This document shows positions 2,926 to 51,066 of a stretch of DNA of 64,000 nucleotides, in pieces. How positions within the stretch are numbered: the first letter of the stretch is position 1; the number at the start of each line of letters is the position of its first letter. This DNA is from Gemmatales bacterium (GTDB lineage Bacteria > Planctomycetota > Planctomycetia > Gemmatales > HRBIN36), in contig JBEPZY010000002.1 of NCBI GenBank assembly GCA_041640595.1, positions 178,984-242,983 on the forward strand, read 5' to 3'. Made by a program: the position numbers and the translations under genes. The notes under the pieces were generated by a model. The model made no database searches, was not told the origin of the DNA, and was given only the letters and a program-made list of their open reading frames with translations.

Positions 2926-4404
2926 ATGACAGCGACGCAGGCTTTGACCAGGCAAACTATCGCCAACCAGCTGAACGGTGTCTCAGCCGAACTGCTGGCG
3001 GCACTGCGAGCGATTGTCGGTGCGGACGGGGTGCTGACGGCTCCCAGCGATCTGGCGGTTTATGAGTGCGACGGTTACACCATTGCCAAAAATCGCCCCG
3101 ACGTGGTCGTCTTCCCGACCAGCACCGCCCAGGTCGTGGAAATTGTCCGCGTGTGTAACCGTTACAAAGTTCCCTTCCTGCCGCGCGGAGCAGGAACGAG
3201 TTTGTCCGGCGGATGTTTACCAGTTGGTGGCGGCGTGCTGATATGTTTGACACGCATGAAACGCATACTGGAAATCAATTACCGCGACGGTTACGCCGTC
3301 GTTGAGCCGGGCGTGGTCAATCTGTGGCTGACACGGGAAACCTCTCCGCGGGGCTGGCATTTCGCTCCCGATCCGTCCAGCCAGGGAGCGTGTACGATCG
3401 GGGGAAACGTAGCCACCAATTCCGGTGGGCCGCACACGCTGAAATACGGCGTCACCGTCAACCATGTGCTCGGTCTGGAAATTGTCCTGCCCGACGCCAC
3501 GGTGGTTCGCGTGGGCGGGCCGCCTGACGATTTGCCCGGTTACGACCTGACCGGTGTCCTGGTCGGTTCCGAGGGAACACTGGCGATCGTGACGAAGATA
3601 TGGGTGCGACTGACGCGCAATCCGGAAAGCTGGCGGACGCTGCTCGCCGTCTTCGATTCCGTGGACGATGCCACGCAAACTATCAGTGCGATTATCGCGG
3701 CCGGCATCATCCCCGCTGCTCTGGAGATGATGGACCAGCTGATTCTTCAGGCAGTGGAAGCGGCTTTTCACTTCGGCTTTCCTCTGGATGCGGGAGCGGT
3801 TTTGCTCATCGAAGTGGACGGTTTGCAGACCGGGCTGGATGAGGAGGCGGAGCGAATCATGGCTCTGGCTCAGGCTCATCACGCTCGCTCTGTGCGTCTG
3901 GCACGCGATGAGGCTGAGCGCCAGCTTTTGTGGAAATGCCGCAAACAGGCTTTCGGTGCCGTCGGCCGTCTCGCTCCCAGTTATTGCACCCAGGACGGAG
4001 TTGTGCCACGAACGCGTTTACCGGAAATGCTGCGACTCATTCGGCAAATCGGCGAAAAATACCAGATTCGCATCTGCAATGTCTTTCATGCCGGCGACGG
4101 CAATCTTCACCCCATCCTGCTTTTCGATGAACGCGACCCGGATCAGGTTCAGCGCGTGCTGCGAGCCAGCGAGGAGATTCTGGACGCCTGTTTGCAGATG
4201 GGCGGCAGCGTGACCGGCGAACATGGGATCGGCGTCGAAAAGCTGGATTTCATGCCCCGCATGTTCAGCCCCGCCGATCTGGCGATGATGGAGCGGCTCC
4301 GTCGGGCCTTCAATCCTGAAAATTGCCTCAGCCCGGGCAAGATGCTTCCCACAGCCGGTGCCTGTATCGAACCGACACGCCCGGGTCGTCGCGCTGCTCT
4401 CTAG
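2926..4404 (+). CDS. glcD: FAD-linked oxidase, glycolate oxidase subunit GlcD-like
   Basis: PRGAGTSLSGG, APDPSS, GSEGTL, HAGDGNLHP, GEHGIG motifs. Confidence 0.85.
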   Translation: MTATQALTRQTIANQLNGVSAELLAALRAIVGADGVLTAPSDLAVYECDGYTIAKNRPDVVVFPTSTAQVVEIVRVCNRYKVPFLPRGAGTSLSGGCLPVGGGVLICLTRMKRILEINYRDGYAVVEPGVVNLWLTRETSPRGWHFAPDPSSQGACTIGGNVATNSGGPHTLKYGVTVNHVLGLEIVLPDATVVRVGGPPDDLPGYDLTGVLVGSEGTLAIVTKIWVRLTRNPESWRTLLAVFDSVDDATQTISAIIAAGIIPAALEMMDQLILQAVEAAFHFGFPLDAGAVLLIEVDGLQTGLDEEAERIMALAQAHHARSVRLARDEAERQLLWKCRKQAFGAVGRLAPSYCTQDGVVPRTRLPEMLRLIRQIGEKYQIRICNVFHAGDGNLHPILLFDERDPDQVQRVLRASEEILDACLQMGGSVTGEHGIGVEKLDFMPRMFSPADLAMMERLRRAFNPENCLSPGKMLPTAGACIEPTRPGRRAAL

Positions 4405-4482
4405 GCGTGCCGCCTGCTGACGGAAGGGAAAGTTGGTAGTAGTCATGGGCGTCGTCGCGCTGCTCTCTGGGCGTGCTGCTTG
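4385..4482. repeat. 32-bp direct repeat (glcD 3' end duplicated) with a 34-bp spacer
   Basis: 4385-4416 vs 4451-4482, 3 mismatches, period 66. Confidence 0.85.
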
Positions 4483-4502
4483 AACCAACCGCTACCGCCA
4501 TC

Positions 4503-4685
4503 CTCGCCGACACCGTCAGCGTCTGAGCCCCGGCAACCACACGGACTAGCAGCTGGGGACTCACTCCGCCGGGATTCTCGCCGACACCACCAACGTCTGA
4601 GGCCCGACAACCACACGGACTAGCAGCTGGCGACTCACTGCGCCGGGATTCTCGCCGACACCACCGGCGTCTGAGGCCCGGCAAC
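4503..4685. repeat. 74-bp tandem repeat, about 2.5 copies (three 35-bp repeats with a duplicated 39-bp spacer)
   Basis: CTCGCCGACACC...CGTCTGAG at 4503, 4577, 4651. Confidence 0.9.
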
Positions 4686-4722
4686 TCCATCACCGTCGTC
4701 AGCGCTTGTGGAAACCCGCTGC

Positions 4723-4891
4723 ATTGCCGGAAAAGCCGTGCTACCCCTCGGCTGATATCAATTCCACCCACCGGGACCGCGCCAATGGCGTGGCTGGTTC
4801 ACCCTCGTTCATAATCAACTCGGCCGATACCAATTCCACCCACCGGGATTGCGCCTGCCTGATTGCCGGAAAAGTCGTACTACCCGTCGGC
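4723..4891. repeat. Two nested direct-repeat pairs
   Basis: ATTGCCGGAAAAGYCGTRCTACCC at 4723/4862 (offset 139); TCGGCYGATAYCAATTCCACCCACCGGGA at 4748/4820 (offset 72). Confidence 0.85.
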
Positions 4892-4896
4892 CCCCT

Positions 4897-5078
4897 GCCA
4901 ACATCGAAAACCGTCCTAATGCACACCACGCCGCGAGAGCGACTTACGGCTTTTTCGCCGGGGCTTTCCTGCGAACATCGAAAACGGTCCTAATGCAAAC
5001 CACGCACCGCGGATTGCGGAATTCAGCTCCTCGCGGGATGGCTGCCAACATCGAAAACCGTCCGGATGCAAACCACGC
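4897..5078. repeat. CRISPR-like mini array: three 35-bp repeats, two unique spacers (39 and 38 bp)
   Basis: Consensus GCCAACATCGAAAACCGTCCTAATGCAAACCACGC at 4897, 4971, 5044; no cas gene nearby. Confidence 0.8.
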
Positions 5079-5222
5079 ACGCGTTTGTAGTGTGCCCGCG
5101 GAGTTAGCAACCGTTTCTGGCCACGAACTGACGCCCACCGCTCCTGGTTGTGTGGTCGCTAGTCGCTGAATGTCATGCGGCTTCCGAGTGCGTGCGGTTT
5201 TTCGGGGTGGGTTAGCGTTCGC

Positions 5223-5401
5223 AGCGTTCGCTCCAACAACAAAGTGATCTAGCGCAAGCCCCCATGCCGCGACCGCCAGACGGGTCAGATGTGGGTTAGC
5301 GTTCGCTCCATCAACAAAGCGATCTAGCTCCATTGATGATGACGGCACGATCGTCGGTCGCGTTGAGGTTGGCGTTCACTCCGTCAACAAAGTGATCTAG
5401 C
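5223..5401. repeat. CRISPR-like mini array: three ~31-bp repeats with unique spacers
   Basis: AGCGTTCGCTCCATCAACAAAGTGATCTAGC-like at 5223, 5298, 5371 (periods 75, 73). Confidence 0.8.
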
Positions 5402-5417
5402 TCCCGTCGGCTTCCGA

Positions 5418-5515
5418 GTGTGGGCGCTTATTCGGGAAGGTTAGCGGCCTAGCTTTGACTGGCACAAAGTTTGATAACGAAGCCGTGCGGGCGCTTATCC
5501 GGAAAGGTTAGCGGC
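5418..5515. repeat. 31-bp direct repeat overlapping the parB stop codon
   Basis: 5418-5448 vs 5485-5515, 3 mismatches, period 67. Confidence 0.8.
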
Positions 5516-6389
5516 GGAGGTGTTCGAGGAGGCGTTCAAAATCGTCGTTGTTCTGGAAATGGAGAATAATCTGGCCTTTTTCCCTGCCGCGGAGACGGAT
5601 TTCGACACGCGTCGCCAGGCGTTGTCGCAATTCTTCTTCGATGGCCTGAACATGCGGAGTCTTTTCTGCACTCGGGCGGGTGGTGTACCCCTGAGCGTTG
5701 GGGTCGGAAGGATGGCTCTGGACTTCTTCCCGGACAAGCTGTTCGACCGCCCGCACGGATAAGCCGCGGGCAATGATTTCCTGGCAGACTTCTTCCTGGC
5801 GTTGCGGTGAGGGCAGGCTGAGCAAGGCACGGGCATGGCCGAAACTGATTTGTCCAGTACGGATGGCGTCCTGGACACTGGGCGGCAAATCGAGCAAGCG
5901 AATGAAGTTGGTAACCGTGGTGCGATCCACGCCAATTTTGCGGGCCAGTTCTTCATGAGTAACGCCATAACGCTGGATATATTCGGCAAAGCCCTGGGCC
6001 TTTTCGATAGCGTTCAGGTCGCTGCGTTGCAGATTTTCGACGAGAGCGGCCTCGAAAACCTGCTGGTCGTTGAAATCCACAATGCGGACGGGAATCTCCT
6101 TCCAGCCCGCTTCCCGTGCGGCACGAAGGCGTCGTTCACCGACCACCACCTGGTAGCCACGCTCGGTAGGCCGAACCAGAATCGGTTGCAACAACCCGTG
6201 CGTTTGCAGGCTCTGTTTCAGAGCTTCCAGCTCTTCCGGATCGAAATCGCGGCGGGGTTGTAGCGGATTGGCTTCGATCTGATCGAGGGGGACCTGCAGA
6301 ATCGCCCCGGCTGGGTGTTCCGGGGAGTGTTTGTCCACAGCACCGAGCAGAGCTTCCAGCCCTTTTCCGAGCCGACGTTTTTCGGTCAC
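5508..6389 (-). CDS. parB: ParB/Spo0J chromosome partitioning protein
   Basis: RRLGKGL N-terminus, NPLQPRRDF, GERRLRA, ENLQRSDL, HTH region; GTG start at 6389 with GGAGG upstream. Confidence 0.93.
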   Translation of the reverse strand: MTEKRRLGKGLEALLGAVDKHSPEHPAGAILQVPLDQIEANPLQPRRDFDPEELEALKQSLQTHGLLQPILVRPTERGYQVVVGERRLRAAREAGWKEIPVRIVDFNDQQVFEAALVENLQRSDLNAIEKAQGFAEYIQRYGVTHEELARKIGVDRTTVTNFIRLLDLPPSVQDAIRTGQISFGHARALLSLPSPQRQEEVCQEIIARGLSVRAVEQLVREEVQSHPSDPNAQGYTTRPSAEKTPHVQAIEEELRQRLATRVEIRLRGREKGQIILHFQNNDDFERLLEHLRR

Positions 6390-6796
6390 GGCGTTCCTCC
6401 CGGCTTCCGACGGGTCGTGGGGAATGCTTGCGGCGATCAAAATGGCCTCGCGTCCGGCGCAGGTCGGCTTCCCGGCTGCGCACTTGCCGGCACCAACCAC
6501 TGAAAGGCTCAGCAGCAGGCCGGCCGCGACGAATGCGCTTCTTCCGCTACCGCCTTATACCACGTGCCGCCCAGCTATGGCAACGCGAATTTACCGTGTC
6601 GCCTGGCCAGACCATTACGCCAGCGGCGCACCGCGTGCGTTTCCGTGAACGCCTGTTATTGGCACGGCCGCAATGTCGTCTAATCGGTTGCCGATACAGC
6701 GTGCGGCAGGTGTTTTTGCCGGCCATCGGTTTGGGATACAATCGGAATAGACCGCGTGGTCGAGGGCAATCCTCAGCAAGCGGAGCGTGATTGGCG

Positions 6797-8134
6797 ATGC
6801 GCATGCGGATTTTTGCGGGGCTGATGGTGGCGGTGTGGTGGTGGGTCGGGCCGACACAGGCGCTGGCAGGAGTGCATTGTTCTGCGGAGACCTATGCCGC
6901 TTTGCCATGCCAGTGGTCCGGCTTCCTGAACGACTGGCGCACGCTCCGCACTATCGCGGTGCCCGACAGAACCGCTGGTTTGGCGGGTAGCCCCGTCGGT
7001 AGCAGCGAAAGACGCCGGCTCTATCAGCAGCGCGTCGAACGCCTGGAAGATCGGCGAAAGCAAGGCCAACTGAGCGCGGATGAGTGGGCCGATCTGGGAG
7101 CGTATTATCTGCGGCTGGGCGAAGTGCATCGGGCGGCCGAGGTGCTTCAGCAGGCGTATCAACGCCACCCGCATCACTTTGCCGTCGTCGCCAACCTGGG
7201 CACTGCCTGGCAACGGTTGGGCAATCTGGAGCGCTCGGCGGCATTGCTGGAGCAAGCCGTCTCGCTGGCCCCGCCTCGCTGGCGCAGGTTTGAGGAATAC
7301 CACTGGCGATTGGTGCAGCAGCGGTTGAAGAGCAACAATGCTGGCCAGCTGATGCTGGACGACCTGTTCGGTGTGCACTACGGCCAGCTCAACGGTTCGT
7401 ATGAGCCGGGCCGATTGCCTCCCGAACAACGCCAACGCCTGCCGGAGGATGCGCTGGCTATTGTGCAGCAACTGGTGTTGTGGTTACCCGAAGATGTGGC
7501 GCTGGTGTGGCAACTGGCGGAACTGGCGGCTGTGTATGGCGACCTCAAGACGGCCGGGCTGCTGTTCGACTGGCTGGTAACTGCTGCTGCCGTGGCTTCG
7601 CCGGAAGTGCGAGCACGACGCCAGATCGTTCGGCAGCGGTTGCAGGAAATGGCCAATAAGCCGGATTCGCCAGCGGGTCATGCGAATCACCCACCGATCG
7701 CGTTTCGCTCGCGGCGAGCCTTGCTCGGCAGTCAGTTCGATGCCAGTTCTCTGCCTCCGGTGCGACGCGATGACGTCAACCCGTTGCCCTGGGGATTGCT
7801 GCTCGACACGCATCTGGATCAACGGTTACGCCCGACTTTTCCCCAACGGCTGCAAGATTTGAACGGCCACCTGGTGAGCATCACCGGCTTTTTGCAGCCG
7901 CTGGGCGAAGAAATCGAAGGCCGGCTCTTTATGCTCCTGGAATATCCTGTCAGTTGCTGGTATTGCGAAATGCCGGAACCGACCGGGATTGTTCTGGTGG
8001 AAATAGCCGAGGGAAAAACTGCCGCATGGCAACCACATCTGGTCAAGGTGGTTGGTCGGCTCCGTCTCAACGCCAGCGATCCGGAAGATTTCCTGTTCCA
8101 GATCAAAAACGCCACCATTACAACGCCGGACTAA
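6797..8134 (+). CDS. Exported TPR protein with C-terminal DUF3299-like OB-fold domain
   Basis: Signal peptide, TPR-like helices (DLGAYYLRLG, NLGTAWQRLG), C-terminal 'LNGHLVSITGFLQP...CWYCEMP...VKVVGRL'. Confidence 0.6.
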   Translation: MRMRIFAGLMVAVWWWVGPTQALAGVHCSAETYAALPCQWSGFLNDWRTLRTIAVPDRTAGLAGSPVGSSERRRLYQQRVERLEDRRKQGQLSADEWADLGAYYLRLGEVHRAAEVLQQAYQRHPHHFAVVANLGTAWQRLGNLERSAALLEQAVSLAPPRWRRFEEYHWRLVQQRLKSNNAGQLMLDDLFGVHYGQLNGSYEPGRLPPEQRQRLPEDALAIVQQLVLWLPEDVALVWQLAELAAVYGDLKTAGLLFDWLVTAAAVASPEVRARRQIVRQRLQEMANKPDSPAGHANHPPIAFRSRRALLGSQFDASSLPPVRRDDVNPLPWGLLLDTHLDQRLRPTFPQRLQDLNGHLVSITGFLQPLGEEIEGRLFMLLEYPVSCWYCEMPEPTGIVLVEIAEGKTAAWQPHLVKVVGRLRLNASDPEDFLFQIKNATITTPD

Positions 8135-9459
8135 TGCAGTCGGCGGCGGATTTCGTTTTCCAGCTGGGCTAACTGCGAGCTATCCAGCCCTTCCGTTCGC
8201 CACAGGATGTTCCCCTGTTCGTCGAGGAGAATGAGTGTGGGAAAGCTGTGCACTGCCAGGGCGTTTTTGACCGGGCAGTGGTCACCCTGGCCGAGCAAAA
8301 CGCGGTAATTCAAACCCAAACGCTGGCGGACGAAATTGACCCGTTGCTGCTGCTCCGCAGGGGAACCGTCCTCGTAAGCAATGCCGATCACCTGCAAGCC
8401 ACGCGGACCGTAACGCCGCTGCAAATCTACCAGATGCGGCAGGCTGTTCAGGCATGGACGGCACCAGGTGCCCCAGAAATCGAGCAACGTCAGTCGCGCC
8501 GGGGCTTCTCGCCAGTGAAACGCCTGCCCGGAAAGATCGAACAGGGCGAAATCTTCCAGCCGATTGGCAACGACGCGGCACGCCGGCACCGACAATAATT
8601 GCGGCGTGGCCGACCTCTGCGGCCCAGCAGCCGCGCCAGGCCACGGAACGGAATTGACCAGCGGCCCTGCGGGTACCTCCTTCAGCATCGGTGAGCCAGC
8701 CGGCGAGCCGATATTTGGAGCCAAACCGCGACCGGGAATCTCCAGGCGAGGCGAAACCGGCGACGGATTCGGTTTCGGGCCCGGTGCACCGACAGGGATA
8801 GCGGGAGTGGCTGGGCCGTCTCCGTTGGGTTGACCTGCACCCTTGGCCGAACCCCAGTTGCCTGGGCTCCAGGGACTTCCATCCATGCGCTGAGTGTTGG
8901 CCGGACGCCAGCTCTGCGGACTGGCTGTAGGCGAACCACTTTCCTCCGGCTTACGGGCTGCGTTGTTGCCGGGGCCATGACCCGACTCGTTCTCGGACAA
9001 ATCTTCGCGGACGATGATGTTGACCACGACATTCGGCGGAGTGGCATAAGTAACGCCGGTCAAGAGCTTCTCCCCCAGCCGGACTTTGGCGACGAGCTTG
9101 TAACGCTGTCCTGGTTTCAGCCCCTGGACGACGAAGTAACCCTGAGCATCGGTTTGCACCTCGCGGGGAGCCTCACCGCCATCCGCTAGGCTGACCTGAA
9201 TGGTAGCGTAGGGCCGGCGTTGATGATACACGTCAATCACCTGCCCCGCCAGAATTCCGCTCCCCTGACTGGACGTGGTGCGACCGGGCGGTGAGGGTGG
9301 CGGCGGCGATGTCGGGCTTTCGGGAACGAGAGTGGTATTTTGTTCCGGCGGTTTATTCCCCTTCTGGCCGGAGAAAACGGGCCAGTTTTTCGGGTTCAGG
9401 GCGGCACAACTGCACAACCCGAAGCAAATCGCCAGTCCCAGAATCCCTAGCCGACGCAC
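8131..9459 (-). CDS. Lipoprotein with carboxypeptidase-regulatory-like domain, Pro-rich linker and TlpA-type thioredoxin
   Basis: Lipobox-like GLCSC; TDAQGYFVVQGLKPG; LLDFWGTWCRPC, FPTLILLD; start inferred at GTG 9459. Confidence 0.8.
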   Translation of the reverse strand: MRRLGILGLAICFGLCSCAALNPKNWPVFSGQKGNKPPEQNTTLVPESPTSPPPPSPPGRTTSSQGSGILAGQVIDVYHQRRPYATIQVSLADGGEAPREVQTDAQGYFVVQGLKPGQRYKLVAKVRLGEKLLTGVTYATPPNVVVNIIVREDLSENESGHGPGNNAARKPEESGSPTASPQSWRPANTQRMDGSPWSPGNWGSAKGAGQPNGDGPATPAIPVGAPGPKPNPSPVSPRLEIPGRGLAPNIGSPAGSPMLKEVPAGPLVNSVPWPGAAAGPQRSATPQLLSVPACRVVANRLEDFALFDLSGQAFHWREAPARLTLLDFWGTWCRPCLNSLPHLVDLQRRYGPRGLQVIGIAYEDGSPAEQQQRVNFVRQRLGLNYRVLLGQGDHCPVKNALAVHSFPTLILLDEQGNILWRTEGLDSSQLAQLENEIRRRLH

Positions 9460-9755
9460 CTGGTGGCCCTCACAGGAAAGTTCCTCCTGGACCGCTGCTG
9501 CTTCAATCTTTCCCTCACCTTGGCCCAGGTGCAACCTCGCCGGTGCAAAACGGGAATATTTTGGCCGGGGCTTAGCAGCTAAGTCGGCTAAGCTCCGCGC
9601 AGTTGCTCTGCCCGCCCTCTTTTCTGCCATCGGAATTTCCATACAAGAGTCATCAAAAAGCCATGGCGTCCATCGCTGCCGCGACGAATTTCCCGGTGGG
9701 AATGCGAGCGTGGCAGCGACCCGCGCGAAGCGCACAAAACGAAGGGAGAATCGCA

Positions 9756-10205
9756 ATGCAACGAGTCTATCGAATTTGCGGCGGGTGCGTGATGATTCTG
9801 GTCGTGGCGATGGTGTGGTTGAAGCAAACGGCTCCGCCCTCTGTCGGCCCTGCCGATGCAACCGCCGCGGATGCGAAGCCATCGGCACGCTTGCTGGCCC
9901 ACAACGTTTATTTCGCCCTCAAAGACAACTCTCCCCAGGCGAAACAGGCACTGGTGGACGCGTGCAAAAAGTATCTCTCCGGGCACGAAGGAACGGTCTT
10001 TTTCGCCGCCGGTGTCCTGGCCGAGGATTTAAACCGCCCCGTCAACGACCGTGATTTTGACGTAGCCCTGCACATCATTTTTAAGGACAAGGCGGCCCAT
10101 GACCGTTACCAGGACCACCCGCGACACAAACAGTTCATCGAGGAAAACCAGGCCAACTGGAAGAAAGTCCGCGTTTTCGATTCCTACGTCGAGGCAAGCC
10201 CGTAA
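9756..10205 (+). CDS. Dabb family (stress-responsive alpha/beta barrel) protein
   Basis: HNVYFALKD...FDVALHIIF...YQDHPRHKQF...VRVFDSY; N-terminal hydrophobic segment. Confidence 0.8.
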   Translation: MQRVYRICGGCVMILVVAMVWLKQTAPPSVGPADATAADAKPSARLLAHNVYFALKDNSPQAKQALVDACKKYLSGHEGTVFFAAGVLAEDLNRPVNDRDFDVALHIIFKDKAAHDRYQDHPRHKQFIEENQANWKKVRVFDSYVEASP

Positions 10206-10285
10206 AACGGACAGCGGGCCAAGGGTTTGCCTGTCGAGCACGCATCTCTTGTACACCGCAGGAAAAATTTTTTTACAGAGAGCGC

Positions 10286-10313
10286 TTGCATTACCAGCCG
10301 ATGGGGATATAAT
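10286..10313 (+). promoter_or_regulatory. Putative sigma70 promoter
   Basis: TTGCAT-16 bp-TATAAT upstream of the RRM gene. Confidence 0.5.
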
Positions 10314-10660
10314 GCAACATAGCAAGGCAGTCTGGGGGACTGCCCGGAAGAAGGGATGGGTGCCGGTGCTGTGGAACTGACCTGTCTGCCATTCGGTCTC
10401 ACGGGGCTTGACCGCGAGCGTGCTGGGCTGGTCGGAACCAGGTTTCCGGGTCAGGGAGAAACGGTTGCCGCGGTAGCGTGAATCCAACGATTCAGTCGGG
10501 GAATCGCTGCGAGTTCTGCTTGCCGTGTCAGACGTTGCCCTGAATAACCCATACTCCTTCCGCAACCGGAGCACCGGTTGTCGAGTGTCCGTAGGGGATC
10601 AGCGCGGCTGATCCTTTGGTCTGTGTGCCCATCCAGTGGGCCTTTGAGGAAGGTACGGCA

Positions 10661-10951: not shown

Positions 10952-10991
10952 TCCATCGCAGTTGCCCAACGCTCAGGTCCAAAAATCCTGC

Positions 10992-11018
10992 TGCCCGGAT
11001 GACCCGACCGTCCGGGCA
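10992..11018. terminator. Hairpin between convergent RRM and WD40 genes, possible terminator
   Basis: TGCCCGGATG / CGTCCGGGCA inverted repeat; no strong U tract. Confidence 0.35.
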
Positions 11019-11038
11019 CGCTGGATTGGATATTTGCC

Positions 11039-13673: not shown

Positions 13674-13674
13674 C

Positions 13675-14107: not shown

Positions 14108-14510
14108 GTTCAACGAGCGCACGGCAACGTTCGCAGAGATTACGCCTGCCGCATTGCTACGCCGAGAAGGAGGGACACAGTTCAACGAGCGCACGGCAAT
14201 GCTCGCAGAGATTATGGGTCGAATTTGGGCGGACAGATTGCAGGTTGGGGCTCGGACCGGTTGAGCGCCCACTCTAAGGAGAATACGGGTCGAATTGGCA
14301 CGGACGGATTGCATGGCCGCTGGCCGCATTTGCGCTCGCCGTCTGCAGATTACGGGTCGGATTTGCACGGACAGATTGCAGGTTGGGGGCCTCGGACCGG
14401 CCGAGCGCCCACCCTAAGGAGATTACAGGTCGGATTGGCGCGGACGGATTCCAGGAGCACAAACGCTGTATGCGAGGTCGAGCTGGAGTTAGAGGTCGCA
14501 GGTCGAATTT
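14108..14510. repeat. Chained direct-repeat arrays, period 67-73 bp
   Basis: 37-bp pair at 14108/14180; GATTACGGGTCGRATT.G..CGGAC.GATTGCA-like units with GGTCG cores at 14217, 14288, 14355, 14428, 14501. Confidence 0.85.
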
Positions 14511-16879: not shown

Positions 16880-16966
16880 GGCGAACCGGTAAAACTCCGT
16901 TACGCGGTAAGCACCGCAACAAAGACGGTCGCTACCGGCAACCACGGCGAACCGGTAAAACTCCGT
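16880..16966. repeat. Exact 21-bp direct repeat, period 66
   Basis: GGCGAACCGGTAAAACTCCGT at 16880 and 16946. Confidence 0.85.
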
Positions 16967-19630: not shown

Positions 19631-19778
19631 TTCATCGTGCGTTGTGCGAAATTGCGAGTGCCCAGGTGCGGAACACGCGAATCCCGATTCCGCGGCGAAA
19701 CAGATTCATCGTGCGTTGTGCGAAATTGCGAGCGCCCCGGTGGGGAACACGGGAAGCCCGATTCCGAAGCGAAACGCA
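19631..19778. repeat. 74-bp tandem repeat, 2 copies
   Basis: TTCATCGTGCGTTGTGCGAAATTGCGAG at 19631 and 19705. Confidence 0.9.
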
Positions 19779-19879: not shown

Positions 19880-19984
19880 CGGCGTTCCTAGTCGTGAGCT
19901 GGCACCGTGAAACCTACGCAAATCTTTATTGCCTTGGAGGGCTATGCGGCGTTCCTAGTCGTCGTGAGCTGGCACTGTGAAACC
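19880..19984. repeat. About 35-bp direct repeat, period 67
   Basis: CGGCGTTCCTAGTCGT(CGT)GAGCTGGCACYGTGAAACC at 19880 and 19947. Confidence 0.85.
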
Positions 19985-20099: not shown

Positions 20100-20203
20100 G
20101 TTCACTCACACAGAAAGCAGTGTGCGCGGCTCGAGCACGACGAGAGCGGTTCGGTTTCGGGTAGCGGCGTTCGCTCACGCAGAAGGTAGTGTACGTGGTT
20201 TGA
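20100..20203. repeat. Degenerate direct repeat, period 69
   Basis: TTCRCTCACRCAGAARGYAGTGTRCGYGG at 20101 and 20170. Confidence 0.65.
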
Positions 20204-20543
20204 CGTTCGAGCGGGTGCAGTCGATTCGTTGCTGCGGCGCGGTTTGCTCAGTAGCTTACGCAACAGCACCACGGCCCGTAACAATCTGCTCCCGGTTGCT
20301 CCGTTGCTGCTGAGCGGTTTGCTCATGCGGAAAGGGGAAATGTCCGGGAGGGCGAGAGTTGACGAACCCCGTAGCGATGTGATAGCTTGAAATAGTAGTG
20401 CCCAGGGAGAGCGGTGGGCACGACTGGTGTGGGAAACGAGAGGGGCCGCAGGGCTGGGCGCTGAGTTTGCGCCCGGTATAAAATGAACAGGAGCACAAGC
20501 GTCACCAATCCGGACGAGCACGTCCACGAGGAGTGGCATCCTC

Positions 20544-44684: not shown

Positions 44685-44769
44685 GCCTTTCTCCTTCGCC
44701 TGACGCTATGGCAGTGCCGCTTCGCTCGATGGGATTCGCGTATTTTACAACTCTGGCATGGATTTTTGG

Positions 44770-45350
44770 GTCCGCTCTGGTCTTCTTGTGCCGGTGCGCA
44801 GATACGTCCCGAGGCTTCCTGATGATTGCACCCTAGTCCGCCTTGGTCTTCTTTGTGCCAGTGCGCAGATAGTCCTCATAGAGTTGCGCGAACCTCTCCA
44901 AGTCCGCTTTTGGTGTTCTTTGTGCCAGTGCGCAGATACATCACGAGCCCTCTTGAGGATTGCACCCTAGTCCGCCTTGGTCTTCTTGTGCCGTTGCGCA
45001 GATAGTTCTCGTAGAGTTGCGCGAACCTTTCCAGGTCCGCTTCTGGTGTTCTTTGTGTCGGTGCGCAGATACATCACGAGTCTTCTTGAGGATTGCACCC
45101 AGGCCCGCTTTGGTCTTCTTGTGCTGTTTTTGGTCTTCTTGGGCCGTTGCGCAGATAGTTCTCGTAGAGTTGCGCGAACCTTTCCAGGTCCGCTTCTGGT
45201 GTTCTTTGTGCCGGTGCGCAGATAGTTTCCATAGAGTTACGCGAACCTTTCCAAGCCCCCTTTGGTCTCTTTTCTGCCGTTGCGCAAATAGCTCTCAGAG
45301 TTGCGCGAACCTCTCCAAGCCCGCTTCTGGCGTTGTTTGTGTCGGTGCGC
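44770..45350. repeat. Array of 9 degenerate ~35-bp repeats, period 65-67 bp, two spacer types
   Basis: GCGCAGATA-type cores at 44796, 44863, 44930, 44996, 45063, 45149, 45216, 45282, 45347 (one interval lengthened by a ~20-bp duplication). Confidence 0.9.
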
Positions 45351-45502
45351 TCGAGGTGATTGGCACATTTTACGACCAAACCGGCCGCAGGCCAGGCAAC
45401 TCGCCGCAACACCTGCCGCCAGCCCGGCGGCTCCCCCACGCGCCGACGGCTAAAGCGGCGGTGCGAAGTAGCACCTACCAACACGCCGTGCCTGGCGCCG
45501 GT

Positions 45503-45610
45503 TCGCTAGTTCACCAGAACGGCGGTGGTGCTGGGCTGATTGTGACGGCGATGACGACTGGTTTTTCGACGGGGAGTCGCTAGTTCACCAGAACGCCGGT
45601 GGTGCTGGGC
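45503..45610. repeat. 34-bp direct repeat duplicating the 3' end of the ELWxxDGT gene
   Basis: 45503-45536 vs 45577-45610, 1 mismatch, period 74. Confidence 0.9.
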
Positions 45611-48438
45611 GGGGTGAAGCTCACGATCGCGTCGTTGCCGGCCATGTCGCGGATGAACGTGCCCGCTGGCCGCATAATCGGCGAGAGTATCTCTATCCCG
45701 TTCGTGTCGCGGTCGGAGGACTGAATCACATAGCGGAACCGCAGCGTTCTCGAGTCCGGTTGGCTGTAGAAAACCGCGTTGCGAATCACACTGCCGATAC
45801 GCAGCTGGATAAATGGTTTCGCGGTGCTGGTGGTACCGACGTTGACCGACTCACTGAATCGCACCACGATGTCCAGCGCCTGGCCGGTTACATAATGCCC
45901 GTTGGCCGGCGGTGTTACCAGCACAATCGTCGGGGCCACCGCATCCACTTTCACGTTCGGCGTGCTCGGATTGGTGAAGGTCGTGATAGCATCGTGCCCG
46001 GCCTGGTCGCGGATGAAAGTTCCCGCAGGCAGCAGAATCGGCGAGAGGATTTCGATCCCGTCGGTGTCCAGATCGCCGCTTTGCACTACGGAGCGGAAGC
46101 GCAGCGTGGTGGGGTCCGGTTGGATGTCGAAAAGCGCATCAGCAGTCCGCGAGCCAATCCGCACCTGCAGATGTGGCCGAAGGGTGCTGGTGGTGCCAAC
46201 GGTGACCGGCTCACTGAAGCGAATTAAGATTTCCAGTGCCCCGCCGGCACGATACCAGCCGTTGGCTGGCGGCGTAACCTGAACGATGCTCGGCGGTACA
46301 GTATCCACCAGAACGCCACTGGTATCCGGCGGTACAAAAACCAGGGCCGCAGCGTTGTCCGCGGTGTCCTTAATCGTTCCGCCGTTCAGGTCGAGCGGCG
46401 AAACTACGGTGATCCCATCTGTGTCCAGGTCGTCTGACTGCACAGTGTACCGGAAGAGCAAACTGCTCGAGCCGCTGCCGGACTGAAAGGTCGCGTAACG
46501 CGTCGCGTCGCCGATGGTCAGTTGCAAGCGCGGTGTCCCGAAAGTGGTGTCCACCACCACCGGACGGTCGAATACCACGGTGAAATCGAGGTTCTGGCCA
46601 AGCTTGTAAATGCCGCTTCCGGGGCCGCTGACGCTGTCAATCACCGGGCCCTGGTGATTGACCAGCACGACACTGAGCGGAGGCGTAAAGTCCAGCTGAG
46701 CATGGTTGCCTGCCCTGTCTCTGATGCTCCCCCCATTGAGGTCAATAGGCGTAACCAGGGTGATGCCATCCGAGTCCAGGTCTTCTAGTGCCACCGTATA
46801 ACGGAAGCGAAGAGTAGTTGTGCCACTGCCGGACTCATAGGTCGCATACCGGACCAACGGGGGAATGCTTTCGCCCACGTTGCTGCCGAACCTCAGCACC
46901 AGTCGCGGCGTGCCCGTAACCAACACTGGTTCGCTGAATTCCACCTCGAAATAAAGATCGTCCTCCACCGAGTAGTTGCCATTAGCCGGTGGCGAGACCC
47001 GGATAATTTCAGGCTCCAGCTCGTCGCTGGCCCAGAGTTCCATGCCATGCGTGCCATCGCTAGCAGCGAAAAACAGCGTGCCGTTGACGTTGGTGAGCCA
47101 CGTGGGACTGGAGCCAGCCGAACCCGGCCGGATATCTTGCACCAGGTAGGTGCTGTTCGCATCGCCATAACTGAACCAGAGTTCCCTGCCATACGTGCCA
47201 TCGTCGGCCAGGAAGAACAGCACACCGTTGACGTTGGTCAGCCCGGAGGGCTCAGAACTAGCAGAACCCGGCCGGATGTCCTTGACCATCACGGTGCCGC
47301 CGGACGTGCCATCACTCTTCCAGAGTTCGAGGCCATTCGTGCCATCGTTGGCAGCGAAAAACAGTGTGCCGTTGACGTTGGTGAGCTTGTTAGCGCCGGA
47401 CCCAAACGGACTCGGCCGGAAGGCCTTGACCATCACGGTGCCGCTGGATGTGCCATCGCTTTTCCAGAGTTCGATGTTGGAGGAGAAGGACCCAAGGCCA
47501 GTCCAGAAAACCAGTGTGCCGTTGACGTTGGTGAGATAGCTAGGATTGGAGCTAGCCAAGCCCGACCGGATGTCCCTGACCGGCACGGTGCCGGTGGACG
47601 TGCCGTCGCTTTTCCAGAGTTCGTAGCCGCTGGTGCCGTCGTTGGCCCGGAAAAACAACGTGCCGTTGACGTTGGCGAGCCACGCAGGGTTGGAATCAGC
47701 CGAGCCCGGTCCGATGTTCTTGACTAGCACGGTGCCAGTGGAAGTGCCATCGCTCTTCCAGAGTTCGTAGCCGCTGGTGCCGTCGTCGGCCCGGAAAAAC
47801 AGCGTGCCGTTGACGTTGGTGAGCGACACAGAACGCGAATCACCTGAGCCCGGCCAGATGTCCTTGACCAGCACGGTGCCAGCGGAAGTGCCATCACTCT
47901 TCCAGAGTTCTCTTCCCTTCGTGCCGTCGTCGGCGGTGAAAAACAGCGTGCCGTTGACGTTGGTGAGATAGCGAGGATGGGAGCGAGCCGAGCCCGGCCA
48001 GATGTCCCTGACCAGCATGGTGCCAGTGGAAGTGCCATCACTCTTCCAGAGTTCTCTTCCCTTCGTGCCGTTGTCGGCCGTGAAAAACAGCGTGCCGTTG
48101 ACGTTGGTGAGCCAGTAAGGATTGGAGCCAGCCGTGCCCGGACGGATGTCCCGGACCATGACGGTGCCGGAGGACGTGCCATCGCTCTTCCATAGTTCCG
48201 CACCGAAACGCCCCTGGCGGGCTACGAAAAACAGCGTGCCGTTGACCTCGGTGAAGTTGCTGGGCGAGGAGCTTCCTGCCCCAGGGAAAATGTTTCTGAC
48301 CAGGAATGTGGCCGGCACGGTGCGGTCTTCGAGTTGCTCGAAACCCAGTTGGGCCTTGTGAGACGGGCGGGATGGTTTCGGTTGCTCCGCCACGAATCCC
48401 AGACACATCCGCCACACGTTGAGCAGCCACTTGCGCAT
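45580..48438 (-). CDS. Secreted ELWxxDGT-repeat protein with four C-terminal Ig-like repeats
   Basis: FEQLEDRTVPA planctomycete export motif; 7 exact ELWKSDGT plus 2 variant repeats; four Ig-like repeats (PPANG / LRFRY / DLDTDGI); AAGGAGG before ATG 48438. Confidence 0.9.
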   Translation of the reverse strand: MRKWLLNVWRMCLGFVAEQPKPSRPSHKAQLGFEQLEDRTVPATFLVRNIFPGAGSSSPSNFTEVNGTLFFVARQGRFGAELWKSDGTSSGTVMVRDIRPGTAGSNPYWLTNVNGTLFFTADNGTKGRELWKSDGTSTGTMLVRDIWPGSARSHPRYLTNVNGTLFFTADDGTKGRELWKSDGTSAGTVLVKDIWPGSGDSRSVSLTNVNGTLFFRADDGTSGYELWKSDGTSTGTVLVKNIGPGSADSNPAWLANVNGTLFFRANDGTSGYELWKSDGTSTGTVPVRDIRSGLASSNPSYLTNVNGTLVFWTGLGSFSSNIELWKSDGTSSGTVMVKAFRPSPFGSGANKLTNVNGTLFFAANDGTNGLELWKSDGTSGGTVMVKDIRPGSASSEPSGLTNVNGVLFFLADDGTYGRELWFSYGDANSTYLVQDIRPGSAGSSPTWLTNVNGTLFFAASDGTHGMELWASDELEPEIIRVSPPANGNYSVEDDLYFEVEFSEPVLVTGTPRLVLRFGSNVGESIPPLVRYATYESGSGTTTLRFRYTVALEDLDSDGITLVTPIDLNGGSIRDRAGNHAQLDFTPPLSVVLVNHQGPVIDSVSGPGSGIYKLGQNLDFTVVFDRPVVVDTTFGTPRLQLTIGDATRYATFQSGSGSSSLLFRYTVQSDDLDTDGITVVSPLDLNGGTIKDTADNAAALVFVPPDTSGVLVDTVPPSIVQVTPPANGWYRAGGALEILIRFSEPVTVGTTSTLRPHLQVRIGSRTADALFDIQPDPTTLRFRSVVQSGDLDTDGIEILSPILLPAGTFIRDQAGHDAITTFTNPSTPNVKVDAVAPTIVLVTPPANGHYVTGQALDIVVRFSESVNVGTTSTAKPFIQLRIGSVIRNAVFYSQPDSRTLRFRYVIQSSDRDTNGIEILSPIMRPAGTFIRDMAGNDAIVSFTPPSTTGVLVN

Positions 48439-48648
48439 GCAATCCTCCTTTCTACGGGTGGGTCGATGCGGAAAAGCCGCCGCAAAGTATTGGGGATGTG
48501 GCAACGGGCTCCAGATGCCAGACAACTGGAAAGGAGAGCGCGAACGGCTGCACGGGCCAGCGATTCTCACCCGCCCGGCCAGTTGAATGACAACCGTGGC
48601 TCGATGCCAGGTTTCGATGTTACCAGACCCGCCAGCCACCGTCAAGGG

Positions 48649-48901
48649 AAAACTGGCGATGAGTCAGAACTTGCGGCCGGCTTCGGCAAAAATTGGTGTC
48701 GCGGCCATGATTCGAACGCATGGGACGAGTCAGAACTTGCGGCCGCCTTCGCCTGGCTAACGACCGAGTATCAGCTCGACCGTCAAACAAAAACTGGGCA
48801 TGGGTCAGAAGTTGCGGGCAATACAAATTTCGACTTGATGAAGGCAGTGTTTACGCAACGCCACAAATTAGTCAGAAGTTGAGGGCAATACAGGTTTCGA
48901 C
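48649..48901. repeat. Four-copy degenerate repeat array with unique spacers
   Basis: GTCAGAASTTG cores at 48663, 48729, 48804, 48871 (periods 66, 75, 67). Confidence 0.85.
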
Positions 48902-48976
48902 GGCGGGCTCACCTCCGGATAGTGCGGTCATCGGACCGGCAGCAGGTCGTTCGCCGAGCGACGACTGCCAAATCAA

Positions 48977-50092
48977 GAGCGGCGGGCGTTATCCCGCCGT
49001 GGTATCGAAAAACGCATCTGCAACGGCGAGTGATCTTCGTGGAGTGGTTACGTTTGCCACTGCACAATCGGCTCCCGCACTACGGGGGGCTTACGCCCCC
49101 CGCTCTTGGTGAACGGTGTCCGGTCGGTGAGGAAATGGGGATTTTTGCGATACACGAACGCACGTTCCCAAGAGCGGCGGGCGTCAGCCCGCCGTGGTGT
49201 GGTAACGCCATTGCAATTGCGGACGCTTGCGACCAGCGACCCGCGTTAGGCTGCCGCTGGTCGGAAACCACGGTTGCAATGGCAAGGCACTGGATTTCCG
49301 CGTTTCGGATTCGCTTACCGAGTACATCCCACGGGGGGCTTACGCCCCCCGCTCTTGTTCCGACTACGACGACCGTCTGCCGAAAGAATGACGATTTTTG
49401 CGATGCACGAACGCACGTTCACAAGAGCGGCGGGGGTCAGCCCGCCGTGGTACGGTGAACCGAACGCCGTGCCGCAGGAATCACGCACTGTGCAGCGACT
49501 ATGCGACACGGAATCAAGAGCGGCGGGCCTCAGCCCGCCGTGGGTGTAAGTAACGCAATTGCAATTGCGGACGCGTTCGTCCAGCGGCGGGCGTGAGCCC
49601 GCCGTGTGTGTTGGGGAAGCGCACTTGCAAGAGCGCTTCCGCAAAGTCGCGGGGGACTGCCGACGGTGTGCTCACGAACGCCGGTGGAGTCGCAGTAGCG
49701 AACCCACGGGGGGCTTACGCCCCCCGCTCTTGTTCCGACTACGACGACCGTCTGCCGAAAGAATGACGATTTTTGCGATGCAGAAACGCACGTTCACAAG
49801 AGCGGCGGGGGTCAGCCCGCCGTGGTACGGTGAACCGAACGCCGTGCCGCAGGAATCACGCACTGTGCAGCGACTATGCGACACGGAATCAAGAGCGGCG
49901 GGCCTCAGCCCGCCGTGGGTTTGCAAATCGCGTGTGCGACGGCGATGCGATGAATTTCGGCGTCTCGAACTCGTGTGCGGAGCGCACTCCACGGGGGGCT
50001 TACGCCCCCCGCTCCTGGTTGCACGACGTGCGTTCGGCACAAGATGCGCGGTTTGCGATGCGAAGACGCTCGTCCGGCCAAGAGCGGCGGCG
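48977..50092. repeat. Large REP/BIME-like cluster (about 11 full palindromes plus one partial)
   Basis: Plus-strand GAGCGGCGGGCGTNAGCCCGCCGTGG type and minus-strand GAGCGGGGGGCGTAAGCCCCCCGTG type interspersed; includes a 218-bp duplication. Confidence 0.88.
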
Positions 50093-50110
50093 CTTTCGTG
50101 AGCTGGCGGG

Positions 50111-50596
50111 ATTTTCCACCAGCTTGCTACGTTCCGAATTGGTAACGCTGGGCTCAGCCTAGCAAAACCCGCCCCGGCCATGGCGATTTTGCATCGGCTT
50201 GCTTCTTTCCGAATTGGCAACGGCGGTGCGATTTTGGTTCGGCTCCTTGGGCTTTCGGCGACTTTACACCTGTTTGCTACGTTCCGAATTGGTAACGCTG
50301 AGCTCAGCGTAGCAAAGCCCGCCCCGGCCATGGCAATTTTCCATCGGATTGCTTCTTTCCGAATTGGCAACGGCGGTGCGATTTTGGTTCGGCTCCTCGG
50401 GCTTTCGGGGATTTTGCACCGGCTTGCTACGTTCCGAATTGGTAACGCTGGGCTCAGCTTAGCAAAGCCCGTCCCGGCCACGGCGATTTCGCATCGGCTT
50501 GCTTCTTTCCGAATTGGCAACGGCGGTGCGATTTTGGCTCGGCTCCTCGGGCTTTCGGCGACTTTGCACCAGCTTGCTACGTTCCGAATTGGTAAC
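50111..50596. repeat. Exact 75-bp-period array, 7 repeats, alternating A/B spacers (150-bp higher-order unit)
   Basis: TTCCGAATTGG at 50132, 50207, 50282, 50357, 50432, 50507, 50582. Confidence 0.93.
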
Positions 50597-51066
50597 GGCT
50601 ACACAGAGCCTGGCGGCTTGCCGTCGCAAACGCCGGTTCGAGAAATCGGTCGAAGATTGCGACGTGTGGGCACAGCTTGCCCCAAACCGTGGACGAGGGC
50701 GCGGAGGATACGTGATGCCCCAGGTTGCTGGGGTCGTCCTTGCCAAAGGTAGTGCGGGGACGAAGGTGCGTGCCATGTGGGGTGCCCTGGGTTGTTGCGG
50801 TTATCGTTGCCAAGGGGTGATGCCTCAGAGGGCTTATCAAACGTCGCGCCTAGACGAAGGTGCGTACAATGCTTGTTGCCCTGAACCACGCCGGAGCGGG
50901 AAAAGTTCTCGTCCGCGGAAGGTATTCACGCTGCCGCACAGTGCGGTGTGATTTGAATCTGGCCGGGACAGGTCAATTTTGCGTCAGCGCAAGATGTCCC
51001 CAGAGGCCGTAGTCTCGCCTGATGCTGAGCGAGACTGCGAGGGTAAAATTTTTCGTCGGGGACTGC

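Follow-up and report, generated by a model that had tools for sequence, protein, structure and literature searches.

Spacer-length inserts in repeat-length duplications across a Gemmatales genome: probable scars of ectopic integration by two Cas1-Cas2 modules

Introduction

Nivala, Shipman and Church, writing in Nat Microbiol in 2018, reportedly described non-canonical spacer integration that gives rise to neo-CRISPR loci in E. coli. Isolated or orphan arrays are said to have been surveyed by Shmakov et al. in CRISPR J in 2020, with retention of arrays whose repeats resemble cas-adjacent ones and with off-target integration into repeat-like sequences as one proposed route to their de novo formation; PMC8616872 cites this survey. 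In E. coli, type I-E Cas1-Cas2 gives rise to neo-CRISPR loci when it integrates spacers off target (10.1101/148544, PMC7054753), and the evidence for natural neo-CRISPR loci, drawn from two other species, is termed circumstantial (10.1101/148544).

Here we describe repeat-spacer-repeat units in a stretch of 64,000 nt from a Gemmatales bacterium (the window) and in the genome to which it belongs. A sequence-only reading of the window had proposed large-scale off-target integration. The follow-up supports that proposal through array-like geometry, cas modules, empty sites, a few spacer origins and depletion from long ORFs; with a probability that we put at roughly 0.88, the units would be scars left where the two Cas1-Cas2 integrases of this genome inserted spacers at ectopic sites.

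Repeat-spacer-repeat units in the window

A sensitive, ungapped diagonal scan (score at least 15, offsets 40-120) returned 41 segments in the window and none in the shuffled window; offsets of 64-75 hold 32 of the 41. Two of these 32 were set aside: the segment at 40887 is a Pro-rich repeat within coding sequence, and that at 49519 a REP-like hairpin. The other 30 fall at the places where units had been claimed, namely 4385-5515, 14108-14455, 16880-16966, 19631-20325, 44786-45610, 48661-48901 and 50110-50599 (Table 1), and Tandem Repeats Finder (TRF) reports periods of 74, 73, 74, 67/133 and 75/150 at these places. The sequence-only reading was right about the period classes and too generous with its repeats of 21-37 nt and spacers of 31-45 nt: the true repeats are ~30 nt at period 66-67 and ~37 nt at period 72-75, with spacers of ~35-38 nt. 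Its observation that a repeat can include the 3' end of a gene also stands, the repeat at 4385 taking in the stop codon (TAG) of the FAD-oxidase gene at 2926-4404.

Table 1. Units and empty site in the window (positions of the 64,000-nt stretch)
Position	Feature	Particulars
4385..4476	30-nt-class unit, period 66	strict extension: repeat 26 nt, including the FAD-oxidase TAG stop
4503..4685	period-74 unit, amplified whole	2.5 copies, ~90% identity, spacer common to all copies
4747..4855	37-nt-class unit	period 72, repeat 37 nt, unique spacer 35 nt
4894..5080	37-nt-class mini-array	2 different spacers, 3 repeats of 38-39 nt, periods 74 + 73
5223..5404	mini-array	periods 75 + 73, 3 repeats of 31-38 nt
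5418..5515	30-nt-class unit	period 67, repeat 31 nt
14108..14455	unit, then decayed 4-repeat array	unit: period 72, repeat 35 nt; array: periods 71, 67, 73, repeats 34-36 nt, identity 83-88%
16880..16966	period-66 unit	exact repeat 21 nt
19631..19775	period-74 unit, duplicated whole	71/74 nt aligned, identity 90%
19880..19984	unit, period 67-70	repeat 16-24 nt
20176..20213	empty site, 38 nt, single copy in window	compared with contigs of X3, X5, X6
20227..20325	period-75 unit	repeat 24 nt, identity 92%
44769..45326	series of period-67 (64-67) units	repeats 19-48 nt; part amplified (TRF periods 67, 133)
45503..45610	37-nt-class unit	period 74, repeat 34 nt, 1 mismatch
48661..48901	two 30-nt-class units	periods 66, 67; repeats 25, 31 nt
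50110..50599	37-nt-class array, period 75	7 repeats (24-44 nt) with alternating spacers (TRF period 150), so a two-unit block was amplified

Two period classes across the genome

Genome-wide, direct-repeat offsets show the period peaks that the sequence-only reading had led one to look for, at 65-68 and 72-76 bp. With canonical arrays, a REP-like family and LRR repeats excluded, offsets 64-69 hold 79 repeat-spacer-repeat pairs and offsets 71-77 hold 77, against 32 spread over the remaining 68 offsets of the 40-120 range. In all, 13 of the 81 offsets examined contain 156 of the 188 pairs, compared with a single pair in the whole shuffled genome. Outside the canonical arrays we catalogued 159 stray units with mutually unrelated repeats, a figure that is only approximate because part of a simple-sequence family (GGCCAGTG-like) is still in the catalogue. 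Among units of periods 64-69 (n = 80) the commonest repeat length is 30 nt, and among those of periods 71-77 (n = 79) it is 37 nt, with many units measuring 22-29 or 31-45 nt because repeat boundaries are blurred by mutation and chance matches. Most loci (144/151) have a single spacer; in six of the seven multi-spacer neo-arrays neighbouring spacers are 24-39% identical, and in the seventh 62%, so that the spacers do not look like copies of their neighbours.

A third offset peak, at 88-93 bp, is a separate phenomenon and comes from a single dispersed palindromic family with a paired 29-nt core. That family has one consensus, whereas the 66/74-bp units share none, as the earlier argument against a MITE or REP origin had it.

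Whole-unit tandem repeats are present at 42 loci (13 at periods 64-69, 29 at 71-77). Their periods, exactly those of the units, are what one would cite in favour of a copying error, in which slippage or unequal recombination with a preferred step of ~66-75 bp made the units and part of each copy decayed into a pseudo-spacer. Whole units lying head to tail, as in a slippage minisatellite, are found at these 42 loci and not among the 159 units, which duplicate only 30 or 37 nt, and the units with 0-1 repeat mismatches already carry unrelated spacers. Slippage also leaves unexplained why two repeat lengths should pair with two periods equal to those of the arrays. The amplification at the 42 loci is read as a secondary step following integration, with which it is compatible.

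The genome's own arrays and adaptation modules

The genome has two canonical arrays, both very large. In array A, 344 repeats, each 30 nt long, alternate with spacers of 35-38 nt (mode 36); array B comprises 247 repeats, each 37 nt long, separated by spacers of 35-39 nt (mode 37). Both repeats terminate in GAAAC. The stray period peaks equal the unit lengths of these arrays (30+36 and 37+37), and the periods of the stray units are distributed like those of the arrays. Measured by the identical procedure, the canonical arrays give repeat modes of 30 and 37 nt, so that in each class the duplicated segment has the length of a canonical repeat; the stray inserts (period minus repeat) are ~35-38 nt, against canonical spacers of 35-39 nt. 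A search of the whole genome found only two cas1 and two cas2 matches, one pair adjoining each array, which supplies the two cas1-cas2 modules that an origin in Cas1-like integration calls for. Module A, at the 30-nt-repeat array, is type I-B (cas4, cas1, cas2), its Cas1b scoring 425 bits against a cut-off of 304; module B, at the 37-nt-repeat array, consists of cas2, a group-II-intron-like reverse transcriptase and cas1.

A working array has one conserved repeat with a Cas6/effector handle (...ATTGAAAC), several units and a leader; the stray units are not built in this way. Only two stray repeats are canonical-like: that of C3:328836, which differs from repeat A at 3/30 positions, and that of C7:236291, which has its first 9 nt in common with the reverse complement of repeat B. 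These two would suit an origin of the units in decayed, horizontally acquired ordinary CRISPR arrays, or in canonical-array fragments moved by recombination. For the remainder, ~150 unrelated repeats would require ~150 donors, all of exactly 30- or 37-nt type; the repeats are moreover local sequence (a gene stop codon, transposase segments that are uninterrupted in paralogues), and no Rfam CRISPR-DR family matched within the window. We regard array remnants as extremely improbable.

Empty sites and variation between strains

Five stray arrays have paralogues with one repeat copy and the spacer absent; the overlaps are 30, 30-32, 31-32 and 34 nt in the 66-class and 41 nt in the 74-class. In one paralogue pair an older unit is common to both copies, and two further spacers have been gained in one copy only. 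Repeats include segments of transposase and other genes that are uninterrupted in the paralogues. An empty site also separates strains: in contigs of the hot-spring runs X3, X5 and X6 the 38-nt segment at 20176-20213 is doubled around 36 new letters, with period 74, whereas it is single in the window and in a 27-kb contig of run X2. The search for empty sites, suggested together with the sequence-only reading, has thus yielded single-copy, spacer-less sites in both paralogues and sister strains, and stray integration has apparently occurred in recent wild strains as well.

Whole steps are likewise gained and lost between strains, as copying error would have it: one X3 contig has an extra step at the 4894..5080 mini-array (it goes back 73), and an 84-nt step (5206-5291) is missing from one contig of the RNA-library run X6. 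Against this, the empty paralogues have one repeat copy and no trace of a spacer, the extra unit in the other strains adds 36 letters foreign to the window, and for some spacers the source is a mobile element or a remote locus that has the array's PAM (see “Where the spacers come from”). As an account of the repeat-spacer-repeat class, copying error is largely refuted and is in our view very unlikely.

Given a genome of 42 contigs assembled from a hot-spring metagenome, assembly or binning might be thought to have created the units. The same units emerge from independent runs of other studies: a 27,208-nt contig of X2 spans window positions 13916-20500 with 0 differences, another of 9,288 nt spans 4633-13920 with 19, and metagenome contig L143 reproduces the C2:174386 unit letter for letter. 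Units are present on every large contig, the array carriers included, and a congener bears both array types with near-identical repeats. An artefact is scarcely credible.

Where the spacers come from

Thirty-one spacers of array A match the mobile contig C15 (32 matches), with a PAM of 5'-CC followed by A, G or T (C at -3 in 28/32 and at -2 in 29/32). The same contig is matched by two stray spacers, C3:328836 with CCG and C3:561426 with no PAM. Canonical spacer C8:12371 and the stray spacer at C2:174386 agree over 31 nt with 1 mismatch and a 2-nt offset, and the protospacer of the latter is found, preceded by CCG, in metagenome contig L142. Two further stray spacers correspond to other loci of the genome, in each case with CCG available: C3:643266 to C1:732922-732959 (38/38 nt) and C2:136237 to C3:406663-406698 (34/36 nt). 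Agreement with the source pool and PAM of the canonical spacers can be seen only in the few stray spacers that are traceable: 5/159 have a source that is traceable and confined to the spacer, 154/159 have no traceable source, and no spacer of the 37-nt class was traced.

Relatives and the choice of enzyme

Unit density tracks the presence of the array types among the three relatives sampled. Congener G003, with both types, has ~10 units in the 489 kb covered, each with a period of 66-67 or 73-75; congener G002, with only the 37-nt type, has 1 unit in 437 kb (period 76, repeat 39); and relative G010, with no cas1 match, has 1 doubtful unit in 359 kb. Because stray units are almost lacking in G002 despite its large array and its module of the 37-nt type, promiscuity is not a simple property of that module.

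The near absence of units from a genome with 37-nt-type cas1 is also the point in favour of some other ruler integrase or mobile element, distinct from CRISPR Cas1-Cas2, that makes ~36-nt inserts and 30- or 37-nt target duplications. No transposon is known to us whose inserts are unique 36-nt sequences. The only two Cas1-family matches in the genome both lie inside CRISPR loci, the duplications and the inserts have the same lengths as the repeats and spacers of the two arrays, and stray spacers share a protospacer, a mobile-element source and a PAM with array A, all of which makes a different enzyme highly improbable. From geometry and spacer origin, then, we infer that Cas1-Cas2 would be the responsible enzyme.

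Genomic location and target preference

As the earlier reading had suggested, long ORFs hold few of the units: ORFs of at least 200 aa contain 16% and 23% of them, compared with 76% of random 100-nt segments. Within such ORFs, periods that are multiples of three are not favoured, and most of the ORFs concerned are tentatively read as spurious. Units survive mainly in non-coding DNA, a pattern that may reflect selection or target preference. The repeat starts with GT or ends with AC in 14/30 units of the 66-class (p = 5e-7) and 16/30 of the 74-class (p = 1e-8), against an expected 10-11%; about half of the units lack such an end.

Proposed mechanism and significance

Since the scar dimensions match the two arrays, spacer-inserting enzymes would often have placed spacers outside them. 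Each Cas1-Cas2 complex would take up a prespacer of 35-38 nt, the two ends of which would normally be joined to both borders of the leader-proximal repeat. On the stray route, joining would occur at chromosomal targets that resemble the repeat in little except a terminal AC, with the joins staggered by 30 or 37 nt, a distance fixed by the complex's own ruler. Gap repair would then copy the segment between the joins, leaving local sequence, spacer and local sequence again; this chemistry of stray integration is our presumption. Some scars may gain more spacers and turn into multi-spacer neo-arrays, and recombination between the two copies may amplify or delete whole units to give period-66 and period-74 minisatellites, with mutation subsequently eroding the units.

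A more far-reaching suggestion, possible and on balance doubtful, is that both adaptation modules serve as a permanent insertional mutagen throughout the genome, one that continues to operate in wild hot-spring populations, with some scars on the way to becoming arrays. Were this true, the mutagen would build a measurable share of intergenic DNA, seed the period-66 and period-74 minisatellites and occasionally break genes; scars already gaining spacers would later be expressed and used as arrays; and the genome would offer a natural system for watching the birth of CRISPR arrays.

Comparison with known systems

Other short repeats of bacterial genomes share single features with the units. REP/BIME and MITE elements are also short repeats in intergenic DNA, and differ in that the 66/74-bp units have no common consensus. 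Intergenic minisatellites or VNTRs (e.g., MIRU-VNTR) vary between strains in whole steps, as seen here with 42 whole-unit loci; unlike them, the step in this genome would be set by a CRISPR ruler, and the founding unit would combine foreign DNA with a duplicated target. Orphan arrays lie away from cas genes and share unit geometry with cas-adjacent arrays, as the stray units do, whereas nearly all repeats here are unrelated to the canonical ones and mostly flank one spacer, for which reasons CRISPR finders would discard them.

The closest match is with the neo-CRISPR loci of E. coli. In both cases a spacer-length insert lies between repeat-length duplications of the local target, the units have the geometry of the array already present in the cell, and re-integration at the new repeat can extend the array. 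The E. coli events came from Cas1-Cas2 overexpressed in the laboratory; those described here are natural, number ~150 plus amplified derivatives, fall into two geometries with two modules (type I-B and RT-associated cas1-cas2), are polymorphic among wild strains and occupy a visible share of intergenic DNA. The mechanism is already known from the E. coli experiments; what is new is its scale, its two rulers and its natural polymorphism.

Fixed distances between repeats in the window

Many short direct repeats occur in the window, with unique sequence between them and a few fixed distances separating them; arrays reported by Tandem Repeats Finder are listed in the table, together with loci on other contigs of the genome (C1, C2 and so on; window coordinates are given bare). 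An ungapped diagonal scan (score at least 15, offsets 40-120) returned 41 segments in the window and 0 in the shuffled window, and offsets 64-75 hold 32 of the 41. Two of these 32 were rejected as units (repeat-spacer-repeat structures outside canonical CRISPR arrays), the segment at 40887 being a coding Pro-rich repeat and that at 49519 a palindromic element. The others fall in the intergenic stretches where the sequence-only reading had placed them. That reading had also included gene 3' ends among the repeats, and the TAG stop of an FAD-linked oxidase gene does lie inside the repeat at 4385. Genes flanking the window units are ordinary chromosomal ones: FAD-linked oxidase, parB, WD40 protein, metallophosphatase, pilM and fadB-like. 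Rfam matched only a tRNA in the window. Coding tandem repeats are also present, as eight 144-nt units (47032-48303) in a 1021-aa ORF (45580-48645) whose C-terminal end carries a Big_5 domain, and as 42/84-nt Pro/Gly-rich units (40886-41281) in ORF 40010-42334.

Locations of repeat arrays, stray units, spacer matches and empty sites
Feature	Location	Class or period	Match or detail
Tandem Repeats Finder array	4503-4685	period 74	
Tandem Repeats Finder array	14208-14455	period 73	
Tandem Repeats Finder array	19631-19775	period 74	
Tandem Repeats Finder array	44769-45128	period 67/133	
Tandem Repeats Finder array	50113-50599	period 75/150	
Array A	C8:1-21080, continuing C10:65235-66999	344 repeats of 30 nt	spacers 35-38 nt, mode 36
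Array B	C1:359748-377935	247 repeats of 37 nt	spacers 35-39 nt, mode 37
In-frame unit	C3:377530/377801		kinase tail, low complexity
In-frame unit	C3:60599		Pro/Ser-rich protein, low-complexity tail
Multi-copy element family, copies	C1:321500-322000, C1:329400-330000, C3:418900-419450, C8:39000-40250, C2:80200-80500		
Stray spacer	C2:174386		canonical spacer C8:12371, 31 nt, 1 mismatch, shifted 2 nt
Stray spacer	C3:328836		C15, 31/34, CCG PAM; repeat differs from repeat A at 3/30 positions
Stray spacer	C3:561426		C15, 28/30, no PAM
Stray spacer	C3:643266		C1:732922-732959, 38/38, CCG available
Stray spacer	C2:136237		C3:406663-406698, 34/36, CCG available
Occupied site, paralogue comparison	C1:1188682	3 repeats, 2 spacers	empty: C1:12146-12177, C10:64930-64960
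Occupied site, paralogue comparison	C1:329026		+2 spacers relative to C1:296756-296785; older upstream unit common to both
Occupied site, paralogue comparison	C3:568849		empty: C2:398300-398333
Occupied site, paralogue comparison	C1:321769		empty: C3:113111-113140, C2:80306-80337
Occupied site, paralogue comparison	C3:419213	37-nt class	empty: C2:80334-80374

Two rulers across the genome

The window corresponds to C2:178984-242983 of an assembly of 4.45 Mb in 42 contigs. Exact direct-repeat offsets over the whole assembly form a histogram with sharp peaks at 65-68, 72-76 and 88-93 bp. Part of this signal comes from two giant loci, which are ordinary CRISPR arrays (A and B); peaks persist once both are taken out. 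The 88-93 bp peak was considered as a third ruler and rejected: it is a single dispersed palindromic family with a common core and conserved inter-hairpin sequence, REP- or MITE-like and separate from the 66/74-bp units. Copies of its GC-rich hairpin core of about 29 nt are spaced 88-93 bp from one another, as direct pairs or short tandems, with about 190 pairs in all (e.g., window 49519-49611, C1:327326-327650 and C6:252623-252947). Part of the period-72 bin was likewise discounted, being inflated by leucine-rich-repeat genes with 72-nt (24-aa) units, such as C2:81029-83823 and C4:156438-157654.

With the palindromic family and leucine-rich-repeat genes removed by motif, and with repeats of 22-45 nt, 79 repeat-spacer-repeat pairs lie at offsets 64-69 and 77 at 71-77, against 32 across the other 68 offsets and 1 in a shuffled genome. 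Whole-unit tandem repeats number 13 at offsets 64-69, 29 at 71-77 and 23 at the other offsets examined. X-drop extension, which on the canonical arrays returns repeats of 30 nt (A) and 37 nt (B), chance matches adding short tails, gives for the non-canonical pairs a repeat-length peak of 29-31 nt at period 65-68 and of 36-38 nt at period 72-76. In a catalogue of 159 units, left after 7 of 166 were excluded by motif, those of period 64-69 (n=80) have a modal repeat of 30 nt and those of period 71-77 (n=79) a modal repeat of 37 nt, the same lengths as in arrays A and B. Because the modes sit at these periods, the stray insert (period minus repeat) is about 35-38 nt in both classes, which is the canonical spacer length. 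The two repeat copies of a unit differ by 0-6 mismatches; between units the repeats are mutually unrelated, as first noticed in the window, and they are also unlike the canonical repeats, bar two exceptions. Slippage alone, as an origin of the units, does not account for two duplication lengths each going with its own period.

Canonical arrays and resident integrases

Cas1 and Cas2 have exactly two matches each in the genome, and one Cas1-Cas2 pair adjoins each array, in keeping with the one or two integrases first proposed. Array A is neighbored by cas2, cas1, cas4, cas3, cas5 and cas7, then a Cmr (type III-B) module, and its Cas1 and Cas7 are type I-B by NCBIfam, over curated cut-offs; array B is neighbored by cas2, a 550-aa group-II-intron-like reverse transcriptase and cas1. 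In the sense set by the cas genes, both canonical repeats end in ATTGAAAC.

When both CRISPR leaders were searched against the genome, no leader-like sequence was found beside the units. On the leader side of array A, C8:21189-21226 is a 38-nt exact copy of C1:622934-622971 (within a 587-aa ORF), with 12-nt direct repeats on both flanks about 67 nt apart, and a clean period-66 unit lies in the leader region at C8:21408-21507; thus the leader itself also carries stray-looking units. A third small array (C20:1210-1512, on a 4.7-kb contig), with a different, AT-richer 30-nt repeat, may come from another organism in the bin. Transposase-like gene copies lie at C10:64779-65102, immediately upstream of where array A continues on C10, and at C1:12004-12327; a third copy, at C1:1188612, holds an in-frame 135-nt two-spacer neo-array.

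Empty sites and strain polymorphism

Intergenic empty sites could not be taken from other species, since flanking genes in the nearest genomes compared are only 74-77% identical and synteny is broken; paralogues and strain contigs were therefore used. For units in multi-copy elements, other copies of the element serve as the unoccupied reference. The search for empty sites, proposed at the outset, found five arrays with spacer-free single-copy paralogue sites, the duplicated overlap being 41 nt at C3:419213 and 30-34 nt at the other four. Such sites, like the unrelated spacers of young units, are left unexplained by slippage alone.

Polymorphism is also visible among contigs from independent metagenome runs, whose hot-spring habitat is taken from the run records. 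At window 20176-20213, contigs from three runs, two of DNA and one of an RNA library, pass 20213, add 36 letters absent from the window and resume at 20176, which amounts to duplicating 38 nt and inserting 36 nt; the site is empty in the window and in a 27-kb contig of a fourth run. The RNA library may itself contain DNA, and presence among its contigs carries no expression information. Elsewhere, one contig gains a 73-nt step at 4993-5065 and one lacks an 84-nt step at 5206-5291.

Origin of the spacers

Thirty-one leader-proximal array A spacers match contig C15 (9.6 kb; L141:1-9585), with 32 hits, 29 of them on one strand; the protospacers follow 5' CC and then A, G or T, with C at -3 in 28/32 and C at -2 in 29/32. 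This pattern resembles primed adaptation against a co-resident mobile element. Being targeted by spacers is what suggests that C15 is a virus or plasmid. None of 9 ORFs searched matched a PHROG family, the Pfam matches are limited to a matrixin-like peptidase and, below threshold, a protein-primed polymerase B, and viral contigs searched for a relative of the polymerase-B-like protein yielded none.

BLAST of the 159 stray spacers against the genome, a check suggested by the sequence-only reading, gave 27 rows with matches elsewhere, mostly whole-locus paralogues, and five spacers whose match is confined to the spacer (see table). The protospacer of canonical spacer C8:12371 occurs in a non-CRISPR context, preceded by CCG, on metagenome contig L142, which is identical to that spacer across the 36 nt compared and matches the stray spacer at C2:174386 at 33/36; another metagenome contig, L143, also bears the C2:174386 stray unit. 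Among genome and metagenome-contig matches, a source was traced for none of the 37-nt-class spacers. Nor does slippage alone account for traceable spacers being of foreign origin and having a PAM.

Target preference, location and fate

A GT start or AC end is found in 14/30 canonical-length repeats of the 66-bp class (p = 5e-7) and 16/30 of the 74-bp class (p = 1e-8), against 10-11% of random segments; no other repeat position stands out among the 30 canonical-length units per class. At C2:174386, the common protospacer orients the unit so that AC falls at the spacer-proximal end, which is also where the canonical repeat has it.

ORFs of at least 200 aa contain 16% (66-bp class) and 23% (74-bp class) of the units, compared with 76% for random segments. 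Those few units that occupy credible genes are in frame in low-complexity tails, with periods 66, 72 and 75, and a 67-nt unit breaks a paralogue of an Ig-like-repeat gene. Two or three spacers are present at 7/151 loci, and 57/159 units have a neighbor unit no more than 600 bp away. At C10:38659-38830, one local sequence is the repeat of a period-75 unit (34 nt) and then of a period-67 unit (28 nt) with a common left border, and it looks as if the site was used by both integrases. One multi-copy element family carries unusually many independent units of both classes across its copies and may be an integration hot spot.

Relatives

Cas1 was matched in 19 of 30 relatives. Three of the 30, not independent of one another, were sampled (0.36-0.49 Mb each). 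In the congener G003, both array types occur with near-identical repeats; its 489-kb sample yielded about 10 non-canonical units, with periods of 66-67 and 73-75, and beyond these offsets a single pair, at 45. A second congener, G002, has only the 37-nt type (periods 75-76), and the 437 kb sampled held a single unit, with a 39-nt repeat and a period of 76. The same-family relative G010, with no Cas1 match, has one doubtful AT-rich pair in 359 kb. The contrast between G003 and G002 could serve to find what holds integration on target.

Interpretation and comparison with known systems

The units are most simply accounted for if the two resident Cas1-Cas2 complexes integrated spacers ectopically. 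Each complex would keep its own ruler while requiring little of the target sequence; the new repeat would occasionally be re-used, whole units would be amplified or lost, and decay would follow. The excess of units here relative to the clean G002 might be driven by prespacers that primed type I-B adaptation supplies, or by loss of a fidelity factor.

This account explains otherwise puzzling fixed-period intergenic repeats, and the genome shows a path from single scars both to multi-spacer arrays and to minisatellites. The cost of adaptation can be estimated here through gene disruption and self-derived spacers. A warning also follows, as CRISPR finders and repeat annotators will misfile such units.

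The units bear on two questions, the origin of CRISPR arrays and the natural fidelity of spacer integration. According to one study (10.1101/148544), off-target integration gives rise to neo-CRISPR arrays in E. coli, and the natural evidence for it, from two other species, is circumstantial; PMC7054753 mentions rarer off-target events seen when Cas1-Cas2 is overproduced, and PMC8616872 cites orphan arrays. Full-text literature searches turned up no natural genome described as carrying many such units. As far as we have seen, printed evidence consists of a laboratory overexpression study and circumstantial natural cases; about 150 independent natural off-target events are available in this genome, for two different integrases that share a cell. 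That number is sufficient for target rules to be read, and those seen are a terminal AC and rulers fixed at 30 and 37 nt.
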